A stretch of 32,000 nt of DNA from Candidatus Saccharimonadota bacterium (GCA_046350815.1 JAXLZO010000001.1:870001-902000); one strand, 5' to 3'. Counted from the stretch's first letter, positions 7,977 through 31,315 are shown. Program-made: numbers and translations. Notes: generated by a model from the letters alone, not told the origin.

Positions 7977-8316
7977 GTCATCCTGAACTTGATTCAGGAT
8001 CTACCATTCTTCAGGCTTAAAAGTTAGATGAAGAAATACAAGAAAAAGTAGATTCCCGATCAGGTCGGGAATGACAGAAGTAAGAATACAAAACTCCCTC
8101 TAACCCCTTTAACGAGGGGGATAGACCGAAACAAAAGAAGTTTTATCCCCCTGATAAGGGGGAGTAAAGGGGGTTGGTATTTTTCTTTCCCTCTTGAGAG
8201 GGTGCTCGTAGGTGATGTGCGACCAAAGGGATTCCAGCGATTGCAACGAGTTGTGGATGTCTTGTATTTATATACACAAGAAAAAAGAAGATCCTGAATC
8301 AAGTTCAGGATGACGA
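7977..8316. repeat. MITE-like composite repeat: 26-bp perfect terminal inverted repeats enclosing further hairpin repeats
   Basis: gtcatcctgaacttgattcaggatct at 7978-8003 is the exact reverse complement of agatcctgaatcaagttcaggatgac at about 8289-8314. Inside are gtagattcccgatcaggtcgggaatgaca (8048-8076, identical copy at 16039-16067) and several G/C-tract hairpins (ccctc..gaggg, ccccc..ggggg). Confidence 0.7.
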
Positions 8317-8415: not shown

Positions 8416-9609
8416 CTACCACTTCCACTCAGTAATAAATTGTTCTTGGATGATCTGTGGAGCCTCGATCGATAATGGTTTTTTCTCTCAATTCTCATCG
8501 CGCTCTCGATAGTGTATGACAATGAGAGTAATATCATCGAACTGTTTGTATCCATACCCCATAAACCGTGAAAGTGCTATCGTAACAGCATTGAAGACAC
8601 TTTGAGCACTTTTATTTTCTACCTTTTCGATCGTCTGACAGAGTCTCTCGACGCCGAAGAGTGGGGAAGCAGTGGTGGGGCCACTGTGAGCCTCTGTGAT
8701 ACCATCGCTGTACATAATAGCAATATCACCAGGATCGAATTGTATCTGTATATCCTTGAGGCTCTTCGAGATATCCTTCATCATACCGAGCGCCATACCA
8801 CCTGATCGGATACGATAGATTTTTCTTTCTCATGCTTTGTAGATGAGGAGATATTCATGTCATGCTCCAGTCATATGGAGACTGCGATCATTTTCATCCC
8901 ACCTGAGCAGGAGGAGGGTCATGAGCATATTCGATTTTACACGAGGCTTGAGGACTTCATTCGTCGCTGCAAGTATCTCACTTCCGCTCTTGATCACACG
9001 GCTAAATCCTGATATGAGTGCATTGGTCATCATCATGATGAACCCACTTGCTACGCCATGCCCCGTTGCATCACCGAGGTAGATATAATATGACCCATTG
9101 CGCTCGATGATATCATACGAATCACCACCTACCTCGGTCGCTGATCGGCTATTCGCAACAATATCGAGTGATGGTATGCTCACATTATGAGGACGTGATA
9201 GTACGTGTTGCTGAATCTCGGCAGCGACTTCTACTTCGGATCGGAGAATTCGTCCCGCTGCAAATTCCCCTTTGTACCGCTCCAGTATCTCCAAGGCTCG
9301 TGTGAAGAATGCTGTTACAAAAGCTACCTCAGGACTAAATCGTGTAATCGCCACCTCGCCAGTATTTCATTTGCCAGCGAGAAACCGTGCAATCGCATCA
9401 CGCAGATCGTAGATCGGACCCAAAACAAAGATGATATAGATATAGAGAAGTCCAGCAATCGTCGAGAGTACCATAGCGACTCATCGAGGATCATAGATAT
9501 TCTTAAAGAGCTCTCTCGGAACCTCTATAAATCCCCCAAGTACCAGTCCAACCGAGATGGAGAAGATAAATGATAAGAAGAAAAGAAGCGTTGGAATATA
9601 GCGATTCAT
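8416..9609 (-). CDS. membrane-anchored HAMP-domain PP2C/SpoIIE-family serine phosphatase
   Basis: ATG at 9609. N-terminal TM segments (LLFFLSFIFSISVGLVLGGF, VAMVLSTIAGLLYIYIIFVL) and a HAMP-like linker, then PP2C motifs (EVGGDSYD, YLGDATGHG, MYSDGITEA, DDITLIV). Joins track ORFs 8860-9354 and 8488-8796 via TGA. Stops at TAG 8416-8418. Confidence 0.85.
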
Positions 9610-9764: not shown

Positions 9765-10307
9765 ATGGTACGAAATGTAAAAGGTTTTACGATGGTAGAA
9801 CTTATGATCGTTATAGCGATTATTGGGGTACTCGCAGTTGCACTTATCCCATCTCTTCTTGGATCTCAAGCAAAAGCTCGTGATACAGCAAGACAGAATA
9901 ACTTGAATTCGATTGCAAGTGCGATTGATGGGTATCAGTTAGATAATTCTGCATTTCCTGATTTAGTCTCAGGTCAGGCTAATTGTGTATCCGATTCAAA
10001 TGGAAAAGTTTCAAACTTTAGCACAGCGATTAATGCGACTATAGCAGCCAATATAAAATGATGATCTTTCCCAACTGATCCTAATAAAACAGTAAATGGT
10101 TTATGTACTAGTGGCACTGGTGCATATGGTTATAAAGTGTTATCAAAAGGTGGTACTAATAGTGGTAGTTATGTATTGTTAGCCATATCTGAAACCAAAA
10201 GATGAAATTTACAGACTAGTGGAGCATGGTCTACTTTTTCATCAGCTGAGTCTCTTAGCGGGTCTATTGTTCAAGCTAGTGGAACTGGCTTTGCAGTTAT
10301 TTACTAA
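9765..10307 (+). CDS. type IV pilin (PilA-like major pilin)
   Basis: MVRNVKG|FTMVELMIVIAIIGVLAVALIPSL is a canonical prepilin leader plus N-methylation site and hydrophobic helix. Reads through TGA-TGA at 10059-10064 and one more TGA to TAA 10305-10307. An upstream ATG at 9729 is an alternative start. Confidence 0.9.
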
Positions 10308-10323
10308 AAAGTATATAACCTAT

Positions 10324-10354
10324 AAATCCCTCTCAAATTTGAGAGGGATTTTTT
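10324..10354 (+). terminator. Rho-independent terminator of the pilin gene
   Basis: aaatccctctca-aatt-tgagagggattt followed by a T-run. Confidence 0.75.
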
Positions 10355-10358
10355 CTAT

Positions 10359-10458
10359 TCAAACAACAACGATTTTCTCCATTTCATCGTCAGTCCAAAT
10401 GCACATACAAGAAGTACTCCAAAGAGTGCAAAGAATCCAACATGCCCAAGGAGAGTAA
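10359..10458 (-). pseudogene. remnant copy of the 3' end of the MFS transporter gene (homologous to 13127-13227)
   Basis: By-eye alignment of tcaaacaacaacgattttctcc...aaggagagtaag with the true 3' end at 13127-13227 gives about 13 mismatches in about 100 nt. There is no upstream coding continuation. Confidence 0.75.
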
Positions 10459-10687
10459 GGAGGATTCGACCGATTAGGGGAGTAAATAATTTCCCTCTTA
10501 AGGGGTGGTAAAGAGTGATGGGGTGGTGGTTTTTGTCAAGGAAGTTTTATAAATGAATAATTGAAGCCTGTTAAATCAAGTTCGGTATAAAACACTAAAA
10601 GGTTATCTGTCATTCCCGCGGAGGCGGGAATCTCCTTTCTTTAGCAATCCAGCAAAGTACGCTATACAAGGATCATCAGAGTCTACC

Positions 10688-10779
10688 GACAAGGCTCACC
10701 AGTCCAGCGAGTTCCCCTTGTTGGGACGAGTCGGACAAGGCTCACCAGTCCAGCGAGTTCCCCTTGTTGGGACGAGTCG
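10688..10779. repeat. perfect 46-bp tandem direct repeat (2 copies)
   Basis: gacaaggctcaccagtccagcgagttccccttgttgggacgagtcg occurs at 10688-10733 and again at 10734-10779. The core cagtccagcgag..gagtcgg recurs at 16233-16268. Confidence 0.9.
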
Positions 10780-10892
10780 GAGATAGAGGAGTATTTGAGT
10801 TGTGATTTTCTTTGACGTAACATTTGATATGACAAAATGAGTTGATTTTTGTTTCTTTCGCTATAGTCTCTCCCTATAAATTCTAAAGTTTT

Positions 10893-11147
10893 ATGGAACA
10901 AACAAAAAATATCACACTTACTGGAAAAATGGAGTTTACTATCAAAATTGAAGCAGAGGGTGATGGATTTTTTGGGTATGTTGTAGAAAATAATATATCC
11001 TCTTTTGGTGATACACAAGAGGAAACGCTTGCTATGACACAGGAGGCACTCAAACTCTGGATTGAATCACAGATGCGATTTCGACTGGAGAAACTCTCTC
11101 ATATTATGAACAAACAATCAGAAGGTATCTATAAGGTAGCTATCTAA
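10893..11147 (+). CDS. hicB: HicB-family antitoxin
   Basis: 84 aa. FTIKIEAEGDGFFGYVVENNISSFGDTQEETLAMTQEALKLWIES matches the HicB/UPF0150 N-terminal fold pattern (..DGGY.a.vPdlPGc.sqGdT.eEa..n..eAi.l.le). Directly followed by hicA. Confidence 0.75.
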   Translation: MEQTKNITLTGKMEFTIKIEAEGDGFFGYVVENNISSFGDTQEETLAMTQEALKLWIESQMRFRLEKLSHIMNKQSEGIYKVAI

Positions 11148-11149
11148 TC

Positions 11150-11377
11150 ATGGCACCAGTCTATAAATACACAGATGTTGAAAAAGTCCTCAAAAGGCTA
11201 TGATTTACATTTGATCGTCAAACTGGATCACATCGAGTTTGGGAGAAAGATGGAGTAAAGTAGCGAATTACTGTTATCGTCCCAGCACATAAACCTCTGA
11301 AAATTGGCACGTTCAGAAATATACTCAAGCAAGCTAGTATTTCTCTCGATGAGTTTCTAAATCTCTTGAAAAAGTAA
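11150..11377 (+). pseudogene. hicA: HicA-family mRNA interferase toxin interrupted by an in-frame TAG
   Basis: MAPVYKYTDVEKVLKRL-G-FTFDRQTGSHRVWEKDGVK-*-RITVIVPAHKPLKIGTFRNILKQASISLDEFLNLLKK has the HicA motifs GSH..w and vtVP.H...l..GTl..ILKQAgi. TAG at 11261-11263 splits the domain. TGA at 11201-11203 falls on a Gly position. Confidence 0.75.
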
Positions 11378-11489
11378 TAAAAGGTTGTCTGTCATTCCCG
11401 CTGAGGCGGGTGACCACAGGAAATGCAGCGAATCGCACTGATGTGATGAGTCGTGAATCTATTCTTTCTATAGTCACTTATAAAAATTT

Positions 11490-11533
11490 TTGACTTTTCT
11501 CTCTAAAAAGTATATACTTTGTATATACTTTTT
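11490..11533 (+). promoter_or_regulatory. sigma70-type promoter overlapped by a perfect 13-bp inverted-repeat operator upstream of mazE
   Basis: TTGACT (11490-11495), 17-nt spacer, TATACT (11513-11518). Palindrome aaaaagtatatac-ttt-gtatatacttttt spans 11505-11533. Confidence 0.65.
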
Positions 11534-11544
11534 ATTTCAATGAC

Positions 11545-11793
11545 ATGACTACTATTGTTTCAAAATGGGGTAATAGTCTCGCCATACGCATCCCATCTGA
11601 TATTATCCAAAAGAGTAATCTTTGCATCGGTGATAAGCTCGATATGACTGTCTCACAGCATGGAAAAATTATTCTTGCTGCTCAACCAAAAGATATAAAT
11701 TTTTGAGAGCTGTATGAACAAATCACACCACAAAATCGATATAATGAAGAATTGATTCACAGTGAAGTTGGTAATGAAAAAGTTGTATGGTAG
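11545..11793 (+). CDS. mazE: MazE/PemI-type antitoxin (SpoVT/AbrB domain)
   Basis: MTTIVSKWGNSLAIRIPSDIIQKSNLCIGDKLDMTV matches the AbrB-like swapped-hairpin motif (v.kwGNS.avRiP). 82 aa, one TGA, TAG stop at 11791-11793. Overlaps the mazF start. Confidence 0.85.
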
Positions 11794-12140
11794 TGTCGCA
11801 ATATATACCGGATAGGGGTGATATTATTTGGATCGATTTTGATCCCCAAGCAGGACGAGAACAATCATGAAGACGACCAGCATTGGTCTTGTCACACAAA
11901 AAATATAATGAACGAGCAGAGCTCGTTATTCTCTGTCCTATCACCTCAAAAGCCAAATCATACCCTTTTGTTGTTCATCTCCCTGAAGATCTTCTCTCTA
12001 AGCCGAGTTACGTGCTCTCAGATCAGGTAAAAAGTGTAGATTGGATAAGACGAAATGCGACATTTTTAGCAAAAGCCCCAGCATCATCTCTGGAGGTGGT
12101 CACTCTCTTTGCTGTAGGTATTATCAAGGGGATGTGTTAA
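11787..12140 (+). CDS. mazF: MazF/PemK-family endoribonuclease toxin
   Basis: MVVSQYIPDRGDIIWIDFDPQAGREQS-G-RRPALVLSHKKYN...CPITSKAKSYPFVV..SDQVKSVDW aligns by eye with E. coli MazF (PDMGDLIWVDFDPTKGSEQAGHRPAVVLS). TGA 11868-11870 sits on the conserved Gly. Confidence 0.9.
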
Positions 12141-12202
12141 GCATTTAGGTGTTTTGAATGATGTTTATATTCAAATAATCCATACATAAGCAATTATAAT
12201 CT

Positions 12203-12424
12203 ATGAAATCTCAGCAATGCATATCTATAAGTGATCCTAATAAGATGAAAGAAGAAAATCTTCAGATTTCAACTCAGACATACAATCATTGCCTAGAGGC
12301 ACGAAAAGATCTTGATAAAGGAATAAATATTCTGAGTTTTGATGAGATAAAGGCAAAGTATGACAGAGTAGAATATACGTTTACATCATTTAGCGACCTT
12401 AAAGATTATATCATCAAGCGTTAA
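12203..12424 (+). CDS. hypothetical 73-aa protein, possibly an orphan antitoxin-like protein
   Basis: Intact ORF with no TGA. The segment EARKDLDKGINILSFDEIKAKY resembles C-terminal segments of RHH-type antitoxins; this similarity is weak. Confidence 0.4.
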   Translation: MKSQQCISISDPNKMKEENLQISTQTYNHCLEARKDLDKGINILSFDEIKAKYDRVEYTFTSFSDLKDYIIKR

Positions 12425-12460
12425 TAGACGATTTGATGATACTTTTATCTTCAAATCTTT

Positions 12461-12500
12461 TGTATAATTACTATTTTTATATATCATAAGTATGATATAT
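12461..12500 (+). promoter_or_regulatory. extended -10 element and 10-bp perfect inverted-repeat operator upstream of the RHH antitoxin
   Basis: TGTATAAT at 12461-12468; atatatcata-ag-tatgatatat at 12479-12500. Confidence 0.5.
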
Positions 12501-12517
12501 ATTTATAATTCATATGT

Positions 12518-12748
12518 ATGAATCGTACTATCACTACAACACTTTCAGCACCGAAACTTTCTTTTCTTGAATCATATGCAAAGAAAATCGGTAAACCAAA
12601 AAATTACGTACTAGAACAAGGTCTCGAATTGTTAGAACAACATACTCTTGAGGAGGCAATTCGCGCTTGATTTGAGGAACGAGTCTCAGAATACAGAGAT
12701 CTCAATGAAGATTTTGCAAGAGCTCAAATCACATCAATGAGCAAGTAG
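12518..12748 (+). CDS. ribbon-helix-helix (CopG-like) antitoxin
   Basis: 76 aa. MNRTITTTLSAPKLSFLESYAKKIGKPKNYVLEQGLELLEQ fits a beta-strand/helix/helix RHH pattern. One TGA. TAG stop lies 1 nt before the ATG of the toxin. Confidence 0.65.
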
Positions 12749-12749
12749 T

Positions 12750-13088
12750 ATGAAACGATTTGATATTGTACTTGCAAATTTGGATCCGAGAAAATGACAT
12801 GTGCAAAGTGGTAATCGTCCTTGTCTCATCGTATCCTCAGATATTTTCAATAAGTATGCTCCAACGCTCGTAGTTATTCCATTTACGTCAACGATCCGAA
12901 AAGTATTTCCAAGTGAATGCATCATTGAACCATCCTATACAAATGGTCTCGTACAACAAAGCAGGCTCTTGGGAAGTCAAATTATTACTCTTGATAAGAA
13001 TTTTTTCTGAGAAAAACTTTGAGTACTTGATAGTTGTTATCACATTGAAATTGAGAATATCTTAAAATTGGTTCTTGACTTGAAATAA
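12750..13088 (+). CDS. second MazF/PemK-family toxin
   Basis: MKRFDIVLANLDPRK-G-HVQSGNRPCLIVSSDIFNKYAPTLVVIPFTS matches the PemK motif (dP..G.Eq.G.RP.lVis.d). 3 in-frame TGA, the first on the conserved Gly. TAA at 13086-13088. Confidence 0.85.
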
Positions 13089-13089
13089 A

Positions 13090-13125
13090 GTAATAAATCC
13101 TCCCAAATTCGGGAGGATTTATTAC
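13090..13125. terminator. bidirectional terminator hairpin between convergent mazF-like and MFS genes
   Basis: 15-bp perfect stem gtaataaatcctccc-aaattc-gggaggatttattac. It is homologous to the pilin terminator at 10324-10354. Confidence 0.7.
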
Positions 13126-14822
13126 TCAAACAACAACGATTTTCTCCACTTCATCGTCAGTCCAAAGGCACAGACAAGTAATACTCCAAAGAGAGCGAAG
13201 AATCCGACGTGACCGAGGAGTGTGAGTAATACTCATCCGAGTATAAGCCCGAAAACATTTGCAAGGTTTTGTACTATTTTCATAGGAGCGCTTGAGGCAT
13301 TTGCATCAATTTCTGTGAGATTGAGTTTTGATGCATAGGTTGTATTGTATGAAGTGAGAAATCCTTCTTGTGAGAGTGACATAGCTGCAGCATATCCGAG
13401 ACTATTGACCATACCAAATGCTATCAGCATACCGATTGCTTGCCATGGAAGTGCAGTGGTGACATTCATTGCTACATCAGTGACGCTTTGTTCTGCTACA
13501 TTGAGCGTATTCGCATCTGGCATCATGAAGACAAACCCGAACATAGAACCGATAGCCAGTACAAGCCCAAGCGAGATAACGAAAAATACACCGAATTTTC
13601 ACGCGAGCTTAATAAACATGCCTTGTGCAAGGTATGCAGGAATCGCGATACATGCGAGAAGTATGTAGTGGAAATTTGGTGCGAATTTTGCGAGATAATC
13701 GAGGAGAAATGATGAGGCGAAGGTATCCCAAGCTCCGAAGAGCATAATGATGATAAATGACCAGATGAGAAAATAATTTCTTGGAAGATCAATAATAGTG
13801 AGTTTGACTCGTTCAAGCTCTTTTTTTGTATCTTCATAGAGACTCTTGATAGAGAGGGGATTGTGTGCTACTTGTGGTCATACTGGGCGAAAGAAGAGGG
13901 TTTTTGCACTCGATGCAACCTTGTTGAAATCAGCCATGGATACAACACCCGTTACGTGTTTCACGGCATTTTTTGCATCAAATGATTGTACGGTTACGGA
14001 GAGTGATTTGATGGTTTCTGCATTGAGTGTCACATCGCTACGATCAAAATATTTTCCAAGAAACAGAAGATAGAGTACTATAAAGATATTCACAATCATG
14101 ACGGCAATAAACGGCTCAAATCAGAGCACAAAACCTGAGAGGAGGAGACCAAAGAGGGATCATGCACCAAAATATATATTCATCTTTGAGAGTACTGATG
14201 CATATTTATTCGGATCGACACTATTCATGATATATGCATAACTCGTCACATCATTGACTTCTTTCGTAAATCCATAAAAAAGCGATGCAATAATGAGGAG
14301 TATAATATTGCCAACGTCATTGAGAAAAAAATCAAGAATACTACTAAAAATCTGAGTCCCAACAGGTAAATTCTCAAGAATTACCGATCCAACAATTGGC
14401 ACATCTCGTGCTACAATCGTAGTCGCAAATATGAGTTTGAGAAAAATGAGTCATGCAAGAAGCTGAGATATGCCACCGAAGAGAAACAATTTTCGTGCAC
14501 TAAAATGTCTCTGGAGAATACCCATTGGTATATCCAAGACGAGAGAGATAGCATTTCCAATGGCAAGAAAAGCTCCGACCAGGAGTGGCTCCTTGAGAGT
14601 GATAGTGAAGAAATATACCACCGTAAAGTGAAAGAGCATCCATACAAATCCCATGAATACATTCGTATTGAGCATATTTTTGATACGGATTTCGTCATCG
14701 GGCTGTGTAGCACGAACAATTGAGAACCCTTGTTCTCGATTCTGTTCGACTATTTCTTCCGGTTGTGTCGGATTTATGACTACGTTCGGATTGTTTTCTT
14801 GAGTTGGCTGAGTGGTTTCCAT
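13122..14822 (-). CDS. MFS-type transporter (566 aa)
   Basis: ATG at 14822 (a TTG at 14837 is also in frame). One frame links track ORFs 14451-14837, 14160-14402, 13878-14099 and 13233-13544 through 6 TGA codons; verified codon by codon for 13545-13880. Multiple TM helices and an MFS motif-A-like loop DIPMGILQRHFSARKL. TAA at 13122-13124. Confidence 0.7.
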
Positions 14823-16035: not shown

Positions 16036-16112
16036 AAAGTAGATTCCCGATCAGGTCGGGAATGACAAATATTTATAAAGATATGTCATCCTCGCGTAGG
16101 CGGGGATCTACT
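16036..16112. repeat. two copies of the dispersed TGTCAT..hairpin..ATCTAC palindromic element
   Basis: aaagtagattcccgatcaggtcgggaatgaca at 16036-16067 is identical to 8045-8076. atgtcatcctcgcgtaggcggggatctac lies at 16083-16111. G/C-tract hairpins and the cagtccagcgag motif follow, up to about 16270. Confidence 0.8.
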
Positions 16113-16329
16113 TTTTTCTGTATTTGCTCGAGTTTTAAAGACAAAAATACACGTCCACCCCGGCTTTGCCACCCCTCAAGAGGGGCAGAGAGAAGCCTTC
16201 TTCCGAACTCCCCCGTTGAGTGACAATCTTCGGCAGTCCAGCGAGCGACATAGTCGTCGTGAGTCGGGGAAGATGGGTTTATGAGTAGGAGGAATTTACA
16301 CGAAGGACTATTTAATCGTACTAATTATT

Positions 16330-22437: not shown

Positions 22438-22516
22438 GCGGGGGTAACATAAAAGAGTGAGTGTACTAAGGCTTCAACCCTTGGGTGTGCCAGTTCGAAC
22501 CTGGTCCCCCGCTCCA
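22438..22516 (+). tRNA. tRNA-Gly with anticodon UCA (decodes UGA); CCA encoded
   Basis: Hand-folded cloverleaf. Acceptor gcggggg/cccccgc, discriminator T, CCA. D-stem acat/gtgt. Anticodon stem (c)taagg/ccttg(g), loop cttcaac with anticodon tca at 22474-22476. T-arm gccag-ttcgaac-ctggt. G1:C72, C2:G71, G3:C70 and U73 are the bacterial GlyRS identity set and are shared with the neighbouring tRNA-Gly(GCC). Confidence 0.85.
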
Positions 22517-22557: not shown

Positions 22558-22634
22558 GCGGGTATAGCTCAATTGGCTAGAGCGTCGCCTTGCCATGGCG
22601 AAGGTTGTGAGTTCGAACCTCATTACCCGCTCCA
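22558..22634 (+). tRNA. tRNA-Gly (anticodon GCC); CCA encoded
   Basis: gcgggta-ta-gctc-aattggcta-gagc-g-tcgcc-ttGCCat-ggcga-aggtt-gtgag-ttcgaac-ctcat-tacccgc-t-cca forms a canonical cloverleaf. Confidence 0.9.
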
Positions 22635-22996: not shown

Positions 22997-23074
22997 GCAG
23001 TCGTAGCTCAGTTGGATTAGAGCGCCTCCCTGCGAAGGAGGAGGTCATAGGTTCGAGCCCTATCGATTGCACCA
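22997..23074 (+). tRNA. tRNA-Arg (anticodon GCG); CCA encoded
   Basis: gcagtcg-ta-gctc-agttggatta-gagc-g-cctcc-ctGCGaa-ggagg-aggtc-atagg-ttcgagc-cctat-cgattgc-a-cca. Anticodon at 23032-23034, discriminator A73. Confidence 0.85.
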
Positions 23075-24501
23075 TTACATACCTTAAGAGCCTTACTCAA
23101 CTCGAAAACCTCGTTTTTCCTGATGCATAAGGCTTTTTTATTGTCCAAAATGAGTTCGACAGCAAGAATTTTGATTATATCCCTTTTTTTCTCAAAAGAA
23201 GCATTTTTATAATGTTGGACTATATTTATAAGAGGTTCGACAATTTCACTTGCTTCTGTGAGTAAGTCAATATTCACGTCTTGAATGAGCTTCAATGCCT
23301 CATCAATCTCTAAGAGTTCAGCGTGGTTTTCCTCGTTGGACTTTTTGAATTGTTCTGCGGATATTTCTCCATTTGCACGCATATCAAGATAGCCATCCAT
23401 CTTCTTATTGATTGCCTTTTTCTTATTCATGAGGGTCATTCTTTTTCTCTCATTATCTTTGATAATATTCTTCGTTTCTTGGATAGATCCATCGATAATA
23501 ATTTGAGCTATTTCTCTGCTAATCTCAAACTCATCAATACATTGATCGAAATATTCAATGATTTTCTTCTCACTTATTCGCACAGCACCAGCTCATCGCC
23601 CATGGTAATATACTACCTTACTCATTCTTCCAGTTGATTCCGATGCCGAAAGAATATTCCCGTGCATATCTTTAACGAGTCATTTAAATGGGAATTGTTC
23701 TCGTGGTGTTACTGCCTTGAAAACAGTATTTGCCCTATCCCAGAGATTTTTATCAACAATTGCAAAAGCTTTGTTCATAATTACTTCTCATCAGAAATGC
23801 ATGAGTCCATAATATGTCTTTGTGCGAAGTATTTGCTCCACGGATTTTCTCGTAAAATTGTTACTTTTCCATCCATGATCACTCTTGAGAATGTCTTTTG
23901 CTCTCACATGTTCAGCGATCGCATGAGTAGTCCATCACTTATTCACTCGTAGATCAAATATTTCTTGAATCTGTTCTGCTTCGACTGGATCTACTACCCA
24001 AGTATTATTTTCATCTTTTTTGTACCCACGAGGTCATCTGGTAACAAACTGTCCCTTCCTAAATTTTGTAAGCATGCCACGCTTAATATCCTCCGCCAAC
24101 TTCATAACGTAGTGATTCGCAAAAGAGAGGATCACAGCCATCATCATCGTGCTCTCTTGCTTTCCAAAGACTCCATCAGATACGGTATGCACCTTTTGGA
24201 TTTGTCCTCTCTGAACAATCGTCTGGAGCTTTGCCCCGTCGATCGGATTTCGAGAGAGACGATCTAATTTCCAAGCGACAATACCATCAGCCTCTCACTT
24301 TTTACAGCGATCAATCATCGCTTGAAACTTTGGGCGTGTTTCCTCAATCTTTGCAGAGAGGACTTCTTCAAATATCTCAATGACCTCAAATCATTCTCTC
24401 GTACAAAGAGACTCACACTCAAGTCTCTGAGACTCCAGAGAGAGTTGCTGCTTGTCCTCACGATCAGTGGACTTGCGTAGGTAGATAAAAACTCGAAACA
24501 T
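23017..24501 (-). CDS. large serine recombinase (integrase)
   Basis: 494 aa from ATG 24501. N-terminal resolvase catalytic domain MFRVFIYLRKSTDREDKQQLSLESQ...GIVAWKLDRLSRN, then a recombinase domain and C-terminal coiled coil (track ORF 23017-23583). About 8 in-frame TGA. The last 58 nt overlap tRNA-Arg antisense. Confidence 0.9.
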
Positions 24502-24580
24502 ACAAAACAATTTATATACTAAAAAGATAGCTCTCTTGTCCTAATAAGCAACAAGAAAAGGGGAGTCAACCCCCTCATTC

Positions 24581-25655: not shown

Positions 25656-26408
25656 GGGTCTAAACCAGTTACGGGTTATATTGACGAAGTAACTTTAGCA
25701 CTTCCTTATAAATATCTTTTCATTGAATACGACAATTATATCTGAATTCAGATTCTTTCAAAAAATAGTAGAAGTAGACTTTCTTGATTCCATTGAATTG
25801 AGAGAGTCTTCTTTTGGTATAACTCCAAAATGACTCTATTCAATTAATGTGTTGAGTTCATCTTGCAAATTCATTTGCTCCGTGATGAACACGGTAGTGT
25901 TTCTCATATCCAATATCTACAAGCCCATCATAAGCTCACCATCCATCACTGTTAATCTCAGACTCTTCTATACGAAGTTTTCATCGAATGATTGGCACGA
26001 GAGTCCTTGCTTTTACATCAGGAACTATCTCAGTATATACTTTTCAGTTTCTTTTGAGTAAACCAAAGACTATTGTCTTCATACCAGCTCACCTTCCTCT
26101 CTTTCATCGGACTCTTGTTGGTCAGAAGTAACTCTCATCTATCTCAACATTTCCAGTCCATATTTCATTCTTTTCTCTCTCACAGAGAAAGGCTATCGCC
26201 TTTCTGATATATCTATACCAATCCTGTGTTGTTTTTGGATTGAGACCTGTTAATACCGCTGTTTTATCTGAAGTAAAATCCAGAGAAAAATATTTCACAA
26301 TTTCTCTTATTTTTGCATCTCAAATTCGTGATTTTTTCCTATAGGTAGTTTTACTGATCATAGAGCCAAGTTTATGGGATAATTTATCCTGTCAACTGGT
26401 TTAGACCC
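25656..26408 (-). mobile_element. IS1595-family (IS1016-like) insertion sequence, 753 bp
   Basis: Terminal inverted repeats gggtctaaaccagtt (25656-25670) and aactggtttagaccc (26394-26408), a single DDE transposase ORF, and a 7-bp TSD. Size, GGG termini and TSD length fit the IS1016 group as described in ISfinder. Confidence 0.8.
25669..26361 (-). CDS. IS1595-family DDE transposase (230 aa)
   Basis: ...NVEIDESYF-G-PTRVR-G-KRGR-G-AGMKTIVFGLLKRN-G-KVYTEIV..INSDGW-G-AYDGL...HINGIESFWSYTKRRL..FYYFLKESEFRYN matches the DDE_Tnp_IS1595 pattern. 11 in-frame TGA. The stop TAA 25669-25671 lies inside the left IR. Confidence 0.85.
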
Positions 26409-30793: not shown

Positions 30794-31315
30794 TTACGCA
30801 TGTTTTTGTGTGCTGTAAGTTACGATCTCGGTGCTCGAACGTCGTCGATCTTCTCATCGCATCACAATGACGGTAGCATTATGGAGCACACGAGATACGA
30901 TGCGTTCATTGAGTTTTTCTTTGAGTTCTTTTTCGGTGAGATTGGTGGTGAATATGGTCGGGAGTTTCTTGATCGATCGCTCATCGAGAATATAGGTAAG
31001 ATCTCGGATATATGCATCAGTGACATCGGAAACTCAGATGTCATCGTAGAGAACGAGTGATGAGCGAATGAGCATCTCGAGTGGATACATCTGGATAGAA
31101 CATTGCCATTCATCGGGTTTTCGATGATTCATGAGTCCTGAGGCAATGTATTTTTTGAATTTTGCATCACTGATTTCATACTTGATACTCTCACTGTTGT
31201 ATTTCTCCATGAGCTTCTTGGCAATGTATGTCTTGCCAACCCCTACCGGTCAACAGATCACAAGATTCTTCGAGAAGTCGAAACTCTCAAAAAAATCAGA
31301 AGTAATTTCAGTCAT
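30794..31315 (-). CDS. DnaC/IstB-like AAA+ helicase-loader ATPase
   Basis: 173 aa. Walker A is LVIC-G-PVGVGKTY with the first Gly encoded by TGA 31250-31252. Walker B is LVLYDDI-G-. Sensor region TIFTTN. Frame and ends verified (ATG 31315, TAA 30794-30796). Confidence 0.85.

Follow-up and report, generated by a model that had tools for sequence, protein, structure and literature searches.

A toxin-antitoxin cassette hotspot flanked by repeated MFS gene ends in a code-25 bacterium

What does it mean that the terminator and 3′-end of a transporter gene stand twice on one chromosome, once completing the gene and once on the far side of a block of toxin-antitoxin (TA) genes? This question is raised by a 32,000-nt stretch from Candidatus Saccharimonadota bacterium (GCA_046350815.1, JAXLZO010000001.1:870001-902000), hereafter the window, in which TA genes fill the interval between a type IV pilin-like gene and the convergent gene of a transporter of the major facilitator superfamily (MFS). 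A first-pass annotation, made from the sequence alone, had described the interval as a TA islet bracketed by direct repeats, and had supposed that it entered by recombination at the gene end, carrying or regenerating that end, and that the older copy then decayed. By comparison with related loci, we found that the interval is one allele of a conserved TA cassette hotspot at the 3′-end of the MFS gene; judged from the related genomes, the hotspot appears to be long-standing, its cassettes shuffled and its spare gene ends intact.

The duplicated gene end in the window

Self-comparison of the window by BLASTN aligned positions 10322-10453 with 13093-13220 at 84.8% identity over 132 nt (E 5.8e-31). 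No other internal repeat of the 32-kb window is as strong, and the match confirms that a duplicated terminator and gene end bracket the accessory TA block. Each copy consists of a terminator-like hairpin and, after it, the stop codon and final codons of the MFS gene on the minus strand (Table 1). The pairing had been drawn correctly from the start, with limits slightly too narrow, as the MFS-frame homology runs to about 10477 and 13244 (41 codons); over these the two copies differ at 23 of 123 coding nt, close to the earlier count by eye of about 13 mismatches in about 100 nt, and their longest identical run is 23 nt (TCAAACAACAACGATTTTCTCCA). The MFS coding sequence ends within the right copy, and the left copy is a C-terminal fragment without the rest of the gene, which supports the assignment of the working end to the copy adjoining the cargo. 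Independent contigs from several metagenome samples contain the junction between islet and MFS gene at 95.7-100% identity, and in the relatives described below the full repeat unit ends at a codon boundary of the MFS gene, between KIV and QN. The hairpin at the left edge of the left copy is likely a bidirectional terminator of the pilin gene.

The reading frames depend on the genetic code. Under translation table 11 the open reading frames (ORFs) are fragmented across the window, and long genes are restored under code 25, in which TGA is glycine. A tRNA with anticodon UCA, labelled ‘tRNA-SeC’ by ARAGORN, lies at 22438-22516 directly upstream of tRNA-Gly(GCC) at 22558-22634; the many in-frame TGA codons, and the alignment of a mazF TGA codon opposite a glycine of the solved MazF 7d28_A, identify it as the code-25 tRNA-Gly(UCA). 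Database homologues of the MFS protein are labelled Candidatus Gracilibacteria, the protein itself matches at 100% one encoded on a 1.28-Mb contig, and the host genus belongs to the code-25 (Gracilibacteria-type) bacteria. For annotation, TGA must therefore be read as Gly in this genome.

In this code, the left copy has frame and stop codon preserved and ends in the same 36 residues as the MFS protein itself. Over the 38 codons compared, the two copies differ at codon positions 1, 2 and 3 by 4, 0 and 16 sites, respectively, with 15 synonymous against 2 non-synonymous codons, where random point changes in the gene end are expected to be synonymous in about 26% of cases. This third-position pattern indicates that the two copies diverged as working gene ends, and rules out the supposed decay of the older copy. 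No ATG, GTG or TTG start codon was found upstream in frame of the left copy in the window, and a stand-alone small ORF was rejected for it on this ground.

Related loci, their copies and their cargo

Relatives were sought as contigs sharing the window’s HicB, 73-aa ORF or a 103-aa MFS fragment by exact-protein look-up, and further through MFS cluster members P0002, P0043 and P0047-P0050 and one metagenome scan. The syntenic loci obtained represent at least four lineages: L020 (NCBI, GCA_964536125.1), L021, L034 and L035 (JGI), and L019, L022-L031 and L033 (ENA). Their flanks are identical to those of the window at 97% in L020 and at about 78-88% in L019, L022-L031 and L033. TA genes lie between the pilin and MFS genes in all of these relatives, the hotspot being present in every locus examined in the genus, and every relative that spans the site has at least two gene-end copies, one pilin-side and one MFS-side. 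A recent, private event is not supported, given an architecture common to lineages at about 78-97% DNA identity. TA genes at this locus without duplicated flanks, which would have refuted the first-pass interpretation, did not occur in the relatives, where the flanks are always duplicated; the empty site also proposed as a check was not found among about 20 contigs and 8 alleles, and contig L016, a candidate empty site by its gene spacing, was rejected as 100% identical to the window. A scan with the MFS protein found no relative in the genome-contig collection, from which the genus seems absent, and the repeat core had no match in viral contigs. In more distant genera (~40% protein identity) the MFS gene is single-copy, with SpoU upstream and PriA/NrdR downstream, and has neither TA genes nor a pilin neighbour.

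The number of copies varies among relatives. L033 holds three full copies, in the order pilin gene, copy with the motif ‘ext’ (Table 1), RelB-like and ParE/RelE-like genes, a second copy with ext, hicBA, the 59-aa ORF, the 76-aa gene and mazF2, and a third copy joined to the MFS gene. L022, L034 and L035 retain the terminator and a 14-nt stump of the middle copy right after a Zeta-toxin cassette. The window has two copies, of which the left one matches the middle copy of L033 in position, and its ext runs into the hicB upstream region, interrupted by a filler of hairpin element and 46-nt tandem repeat. Each of three different cargo blocks (RelBE-like, Zeta and the one ending in mazF2) thus closes with a terminator and MFS end of its own. 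Undamaged displaced copies comprise 49 codons and the stop and break at the same codon, QN being preceded by KIV in the gene and by ID(T/A) or INT in the copies; directly after them follows an ext sequence shared across relatives (CCCCTCTTGAGGGGTGG). Ext belongs to a family of repeats scattered over intergenic sites, and is found also at 16167-16185 of the window (minus strand) and at other intergenic sites in the relatives.

A left copy of this kind might be what remains of a second MFS paralogue in tandem, most of which was deleted and gave way to TA genes; such a loss would leave, as seen here, a coding-like copy in the same orientation with mostly synonymous differences. However, all lineages share the break codon and keep only 49 codons, there are up to three stubs, each with a terminator before and ext after, the distant homologues are single-copy, and the left-copy haplotype is the functional orthologous end of sister strains (see below), and we give such an origin almost no credence.

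Retention of the coding frame extends to the relatives. In seven alleles, the variable sites at codon positions 1, 2 and 3 number 12, 2 and 29 in the displaced copies (p 2e-6) and 8, 1 and 29 in the functional ones, and all seven displaced copies retain frame and stop codon. Changes private to the displaced copies are few and unbiased, with 7 synonymous and 8 non-synonymous. The retained frames and third-position-biased variation would agree with direct selection on the displaced copies, either as an expressed membrane peptide (the last MFS transmembrane helix with a KWRKSLLFE tail) or as a required landing pad; besides, the JGI annotation of L021 calls an 88-aa ORF ending in the copy, and in L021 and L022 a TTG preceded by AGGAGG opens a predicted 47-aa product. 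Yet GTGs are the only candidate starts of the copy in L020, where no ribosome-binding motif is visible, lineages differ in the parts upstream, and most of the middle copy has been lost in L022, L034 and L035. Because the window has no in-frame start and the private changes are unbiased, selection on a peptide is very improbable. For annotation, gene fragments of such a kind need a codon-level check before they are labelled decaying pseudogenes.

The copies are, moreover, mosaic. In a neighbour-joining tree they cluster by species group and not by position. The functional end of L020 equals the right copy of the window over nt 1-57 and then the left copy over nt 58-113 except at two sites, and the functional end of L032 shares the left-copy type of segment from about nt 62; the spare left copy of the window therefore carries the working-end haplotype of its sister strains. 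The switch in L020 lies mid-repeat, at about nt 52-58, a position that would fit general homologous recombination at least as well as a site-specific crossover. From 8.4 to 16 kb, the comparison of the window with L020 falls into blocks of a few hundred bases, by turns 100% and 85-90% identical (for example at 8600-9000, 10900-11200, 11900-12000, 13200 and 14400-14500), the most divergent stretch being the pilin C-terminus with the left copy (9826-10831). This patchwork, together with the mosaic copies, points to frequent short-tract homologous recombination between strains of the lineage. Between 9826 and 10322, which covers the C-terminal two-thirds of the pilin gene, the window and L020 have no DNA match between flanks that are 97% identical, and the pilin C-terminal part (from about 9826) is hypervariable between strains, and two pilin genes lie in tandem in L021. 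These observations suggest that pilin alleles are replaced, or exchanged in a diversifying manner, in linkage with the left repeat copy.

As to the cargo, the block of 59-aa ORF, 76-aa gene and mazF2 adjoining the MFS gene is universal among relatives, and the remainder is variable: the window and L020 carry hicBA and mazEF before this block, L022, L034 and L035 a Zeta toxin with a 46-aa gene and then hicBA, and L021 RelB-like and ParE/RelE-like genes. A mazEF module occurs in the window, in L020 and in contig L009, where a truncated RelBE-like module is joined to it through one hairpin element, and is absent from L019, L021, L022 and L033-L035. Pfam confirmed the broken HicA, MazE and two PemK/MazF toxins named by the first-pass annotation, and left HicB with a weak match and the supposed ribbon-helix-helix (RHH) protein without a family. 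In the window, mazE and mazF overlap in the order typical of MazEF; an intact HicAB pair is not present, as hicA is cut by a TAG that replaces the AAG (Lys) codon of relatives. The hicB gene lies directly upstream of hicA in the window and relatives, and is intact in the window’s strain, where the hicA TAG recurs in six independent contigs from different metagenome samples. With hicA intact in L019, L022, L033, L034 and L035, and a 75-aa HicA called in L020, hicA of the window is a genuine nonsense pseudogene whose inactivation is fixed in its strain. By alignment of its orthologues, the mazF2 gene is intact and nearly invariant across all relatives, and the 76-aa protein encoded before it is its putative antitoxin, by position and by conservation in all relatives. 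In the NCBI assembly of L020, mazF2 is interrupted by an N run (a scaffold gap) that would mimic a broken toxin gene. For the 59-aa ORF, homology to relatives begins at 12242-12245, and a 59-aa product is called in all of them. Neither this ORF nor the 76-aa protein has a family match in Pfam or NCBIfam, and NCBIfam gave none for HicB or the RelBE-like pair either; a search for known RNAs with Rfam, at permissive thresholds, yielded only sub-threshold matches on the terminators.

By inspection, the repeats between cassettes are gene ends, terminators and hairpins resembling repetitive extragenic palindromes (REPs). The palindromic and tandem repeats reported earlier are real on self-comparison of the window: the filler, which is absent in L033 and shorter in L020, contains a perfect tandem repeat of two 46-nt units (10688-10779), and the second hairpin element sits at the mazEF module boundary; the L009 junction described above leads, at one such element, from mazEF to different upstream DNA. 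The hairpins form an intergenic family of the type TGTCAT-(stem-loop)-GGAAT/GGATC (7977-8314, 8045-8076, 16036-16110, 10608-10632 and 11392-11416), including a perfect 32-nt direct repeat (8045-8076 = 16036-16067) and a perfect 26-nt inverted pair (7977-8002 and 8289-8314), and they coincide with rearrangement junctions in the islet. Independent metagenome contigs stop exactly at hairpin or tandem repeats (L001 ends at 10752, inside the tandem repeat, and at 16067), which indicates that the genome contains the hairpin repeats in multiple copies. The 12-mer CAGTCCAGCGAG of the 46-nt repeat (10700-10711 and 10746-10757) recurs at 16234-16245, in a repeat cluster downstream of a pyrophosphatase gene, and the intergenic clusters at 10.5-10.8 kb and 16.0-16.3 kb share repeat modules in a mosaic like that of bacterial interspersed mosaic elements.

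Table 1. Features of the pilin-MFS interval and of the downstream region, in window positions.
Feature	Position	Strand	Evidence or remark
Type IV pilin-like gene	9765-10307	+	Pfam N_methyl 5e-08, T2SSG 9e-04; left neighbour, convergent with MFS gene
Terminator hairpin, left edge of left copy	10324-10351		Perfect 14+14 (inverted repeat I8, 100% complementary); A-run before, T-run after; terminator-pattern match
Displaced MFS 3′-end copy	10355-10477	-	Stop TAG 10355-10357 and 40 in-frame codons; encodes ...IGRILLTLLGHVGFFALFGVLLVCAFGLTMKWRKSLLFE and stop
Motif ‘ext’ (TCCCTCTTAAGGGGTGG..GGGGTGG)	10478-10530	+	After every displaced copy in all relatives
Strain-specific filler, about 255-265 nt	10531-10785		Hairpin element 10608-10632 and 46-nt tandem repeat (two units)
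HicB-like antitoxin gene, 84 aa	10893-11147	+	Weak Pfam HicB_lk_antitox match, E 0.006, below cut-off
hicA toxin pseudogene	11150-11377	+	Pfam HicA_toxin 4e-19 after repair of in-frame TAG 11261-11263
Second hairpin repeat element	11371-11416	+	Direct repeat with 10589-10628; family D3, 88%; BLAST 94% over 33 nt
mazE antitoxin gene, 82 aa	11545-11793	+	Pfam MazE_antitoxin 3.7e-11; one TGA = Gly
mazF toxin gene, 117 aa	11787-12140	+	Pfam PemK_toxin 4e-26; solved MazF 7d28_A, 5e-28
ORF, 59 aa	12245-12424	+	Conserved in every relative; readable as 73 aa from 12203 in the window
Putative antitoxin gene, 76 aa (earlier ‘RHH’)	12518-12748	+	Directly upstream of mazF2
Second MazF/PemK toxin gene (mazF2), 112 aa	12750-13088	+	Pfam PemK_toxin 8e-25; three TGA = Gly
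Hairpin terminator of mazF2 and MFS, left edge of right copy	13089-13126		Inverted repeat I3, 95% complementary
Functional repeat copy	13122-13271	-	Stop TAA 13122-13124 and last 49 MFS codons
MFS transporter gene, 566 aa (target gene)	13122-14822	-	PF07690 in homologues
Large serine recombinase gene	23017-24510	-	Pfam Resolvase and Recombinase domains; 3′-end overlaps tRNA-Arg(GCG)
IS1595-family transposase gene	25669-26361		Pfam

How the arrangement may have arisen

What is observed is the anatomy of the locus, with the number of its copies, their intact coding frames, their mosaic make-up and the varying cargo; from this we infer the mechanism of insertion, its direction and its enzyme. The reading that we favour, with a probability of roughly 0.55, is that cassettes, each with a replacement for the gene end, were inserted repeatedly in Campbell fashion and that homologous recombination has been frequent since. 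The repeat unit is the terminator, likely bidirectional, with the last 49 MFS codons and stop, placed on the MFS-proximal side of each cargo block; the unit nearest the MFS body completes the working gene, and earlier units, each followed by ext, would have been pushed pilin-ward. An element of the order ext, cargo, terminator and gene end would recombine with the chromosomal gene end, displace the old end and supply its replacement, and such an insertion would have happened at least twice in the clade. At present, cassettes would be gained, lost and swapped by general homologous recombination with the DNA of other strains, for which the repeated gene ends and flanking genes would serve as homology arms, and the same recombination would overwrite displaced copies with functional alleles, which would explain why these are undecayed. 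Cargo blocks with their own gene ends, a constant junction between copy and ext, and mosaic copies make up the anatomy expected from repeated Campbell-type recombination; the constant junction would be expected from a circular or incoming element wherever the crossover fell. As no allele contains a recombinase, general homologous recombination is the process to which both the exchange of cassettes and the refreshing of copies are ascribed. In agreement with the original proposal, the three-copy and stump-bearing relatives support an insertion into the gene end by which a new end was brought along; the decay of the older copy has to be dropped from it.

Several points weigh against this reading. 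Neither an integrase nor an excisionase or transposase was found in the islet in the window or in about eight alleles, and no free or circular form, or cassette at another genomic location, was found; with no empty site either, the insertion is read only from its scar. The universal block adjoins the MFS gene and the variable cassettes lie pilin-side, the reverse of an accretion in which the newest insert is next to the target, unless later insertions used the displaced copy, which would reconcile the order. Furthermore, ext, being dispersed at unrelated intergenic sites, need not be an element arm, and gene conversion alone can explain the undecayed displaced copies. Finally, all relatives are metagenome assemblies, in which repeats of about 150-190 bp can be mis-joined, yet the architecture recurs in assemblies from NCBI, JGI and ENA.

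The main alternative, possible but less probable, is that the MFS end was duplicated only once and long ago, by whatever mechanism (one old island insertion or an illegitimate event among them), and that TA modules and REP-like hairpins have since come and gone singly between the two fixed repeats under concerted evolution. The repeats would then play no part in cassette mobility, the third copy of L033 would stem from unequal crossing-over, and spare copies would be refreshed from the functional end or from imported alleles. A single origin predicts the breakpoint and ext shared by all undamaged displaced copies, and the clustering of copies by species group, the pervasive short-tract recombination, the rearrangement junctions at hairpin elements (mazEF after 11371-11416, L009 and the unequal fillers after ext) and the lack of a recombinase all speak for it. 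What piecemeal insertion does not predict, however, is that each of three unrelated cargo blocks should have a terminator and MFS end to itself. Compared pairwise, the three copies of L033 differ at 13-18 of 123 nt, mostly at third codon positions, and are therefore no recent product of unequal crossing-over; likewise, the differences between the two copies of the window, with no second-position change in 38 codons, are hard to obtain from conversion within the genome and subsequent neutral drift of the spare copy.

Repeated insertion, the favoured reading, treats the gene end chiefly as a scar. It might instead be a working part of a recombinase-free capture of cassettes, with circles, exchange between strains and stacking at one safe chromosomal site. 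A portable unit of ~180 bp (terminator, MFS end and ext) would be the homology handle, TA cassettes would be excised as circles and exchanged perhaps by pilus-dependent DNA uptake, and displaced copies would be maintained as landing pads. We consider this unlikely; if true, general recombination would here sustain an integron-like array in a reduced genome of the candidate phyla radiation.

The serine recombinase gene at the far end of the window was also considered as mediator of the islet and set aside, there being no evidence for this role and the gene having its own tRNA-Arg site about 10 kb away. Homology between the window and L022 stops at 23076, at the tRNA end, and an IstB/DnaC-like ATPase is encoded at 30794-31315, beyond the IS1595 transposase. 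The sequence from 22997 to about 32000 probably belongs to another integrative element, or a prophage, that occupies tRNA-Arg.

Significance and comparison with known systems

The locus offers a checkable case of accessory-gene turnover in an uncultured, small-genome, code-25 bacterium, in which one fixed site beside a hypervariable pilin gene collects and swaps TA cassettes and the transporter gene stays intact. The spare gene ends, still intact, and the mosaic alleles show directly that strains of the lineage frequently undergo homologous recombination with one another, and the number and type of gene-end copies provide a simple marker of cassette history in metagenomes.

The cargo resembles the type II TA systems HicAB and MazEF/PemIK, with HicA, MazE and two PemK/MazF proteins by Pfam and each toxin gene after a small antitoxin-sized gene; unlike in those systems, hicA is a nonsense pseudogene, and the partner of the second MazF and the 59-aa ORF have no known family. 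Integrons such as the Vibrio superintegrons are arrays of small, interchangeable, promoter-poor cassettes, many of them TA, with a repeated unit, IntI, attI and attC hairpins. The present locus is likewise a chromosomal array of small swappable TA cassettes parted by a repeated unit, but that unit is a host gene end with its terminator and not an attC hairpin. No IntI or attI was seen, and no tyrosine recombinase among the ORFs of the 32-kb window inspected under code 25, where the only recombinases examined with Pfam are the serine recombinase and the IS1595 transposase of Table 1; the integron reading was set aside because IntI was not found and the repeats are host gene ends.

The closest analogues appear to be the e14 element at icd/icdC and the accretion of integrase-less cis-mobilizable elements (CIMEs), and membership in either would be incomplete. 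As with e14 and phage 21 in Escherichia coli icd, a direct repeat of the target-gene 3′-end flanks the insert here, and the insert in the 3′-end of a protein gene supplies a replacement end that leaves the gene intact. The e14 element sits between icd and the C-terminal fragment icdC, and its excision alters icd mainly at synonymous sites (PMC13626634). In both cases the old end survives as a C-terminal fragment on the far side, both ends encode nearly the same protein, and recombination between the two ends yields a functional hybrid (PMC13626634). The two differ in that e14, a prophage of 15 kb, encodes a site-specific recombinase of its own and is excised upon SOS induction, whereas the present insert consists of 2.6 kb of TA genes with no recombinase, holds in its relatives up to three gene-end copies and showed no excision.

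Streptococcal CIMEs have short identical attachment (att) cores, and cognate integrative conjugative or mobilizable elements bearing an integrase occupy the same site. The repeat described here is, in contrast, about 150-190 nt long and 80-90% identical, and no cognate integrase-bearing occupant of the MFS-end site was seen in the small set of alleles. The likeness lies in an integrase-less islet that keeps its attL and attR, as the repeats here flank an insert without recombination or transfer genes. According to PMC5704250 (citing Pavlovic 2004), tandem CIME arrays at the 3′-end of a target gene have internal att copies from successive insertions, and the internal gene-end copies in tandem, three in L033 with a stump in L022, L034 and L035, recall this accretion. 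The locus is a neat case of an insertion scar whose kind is already known, and not a new system.

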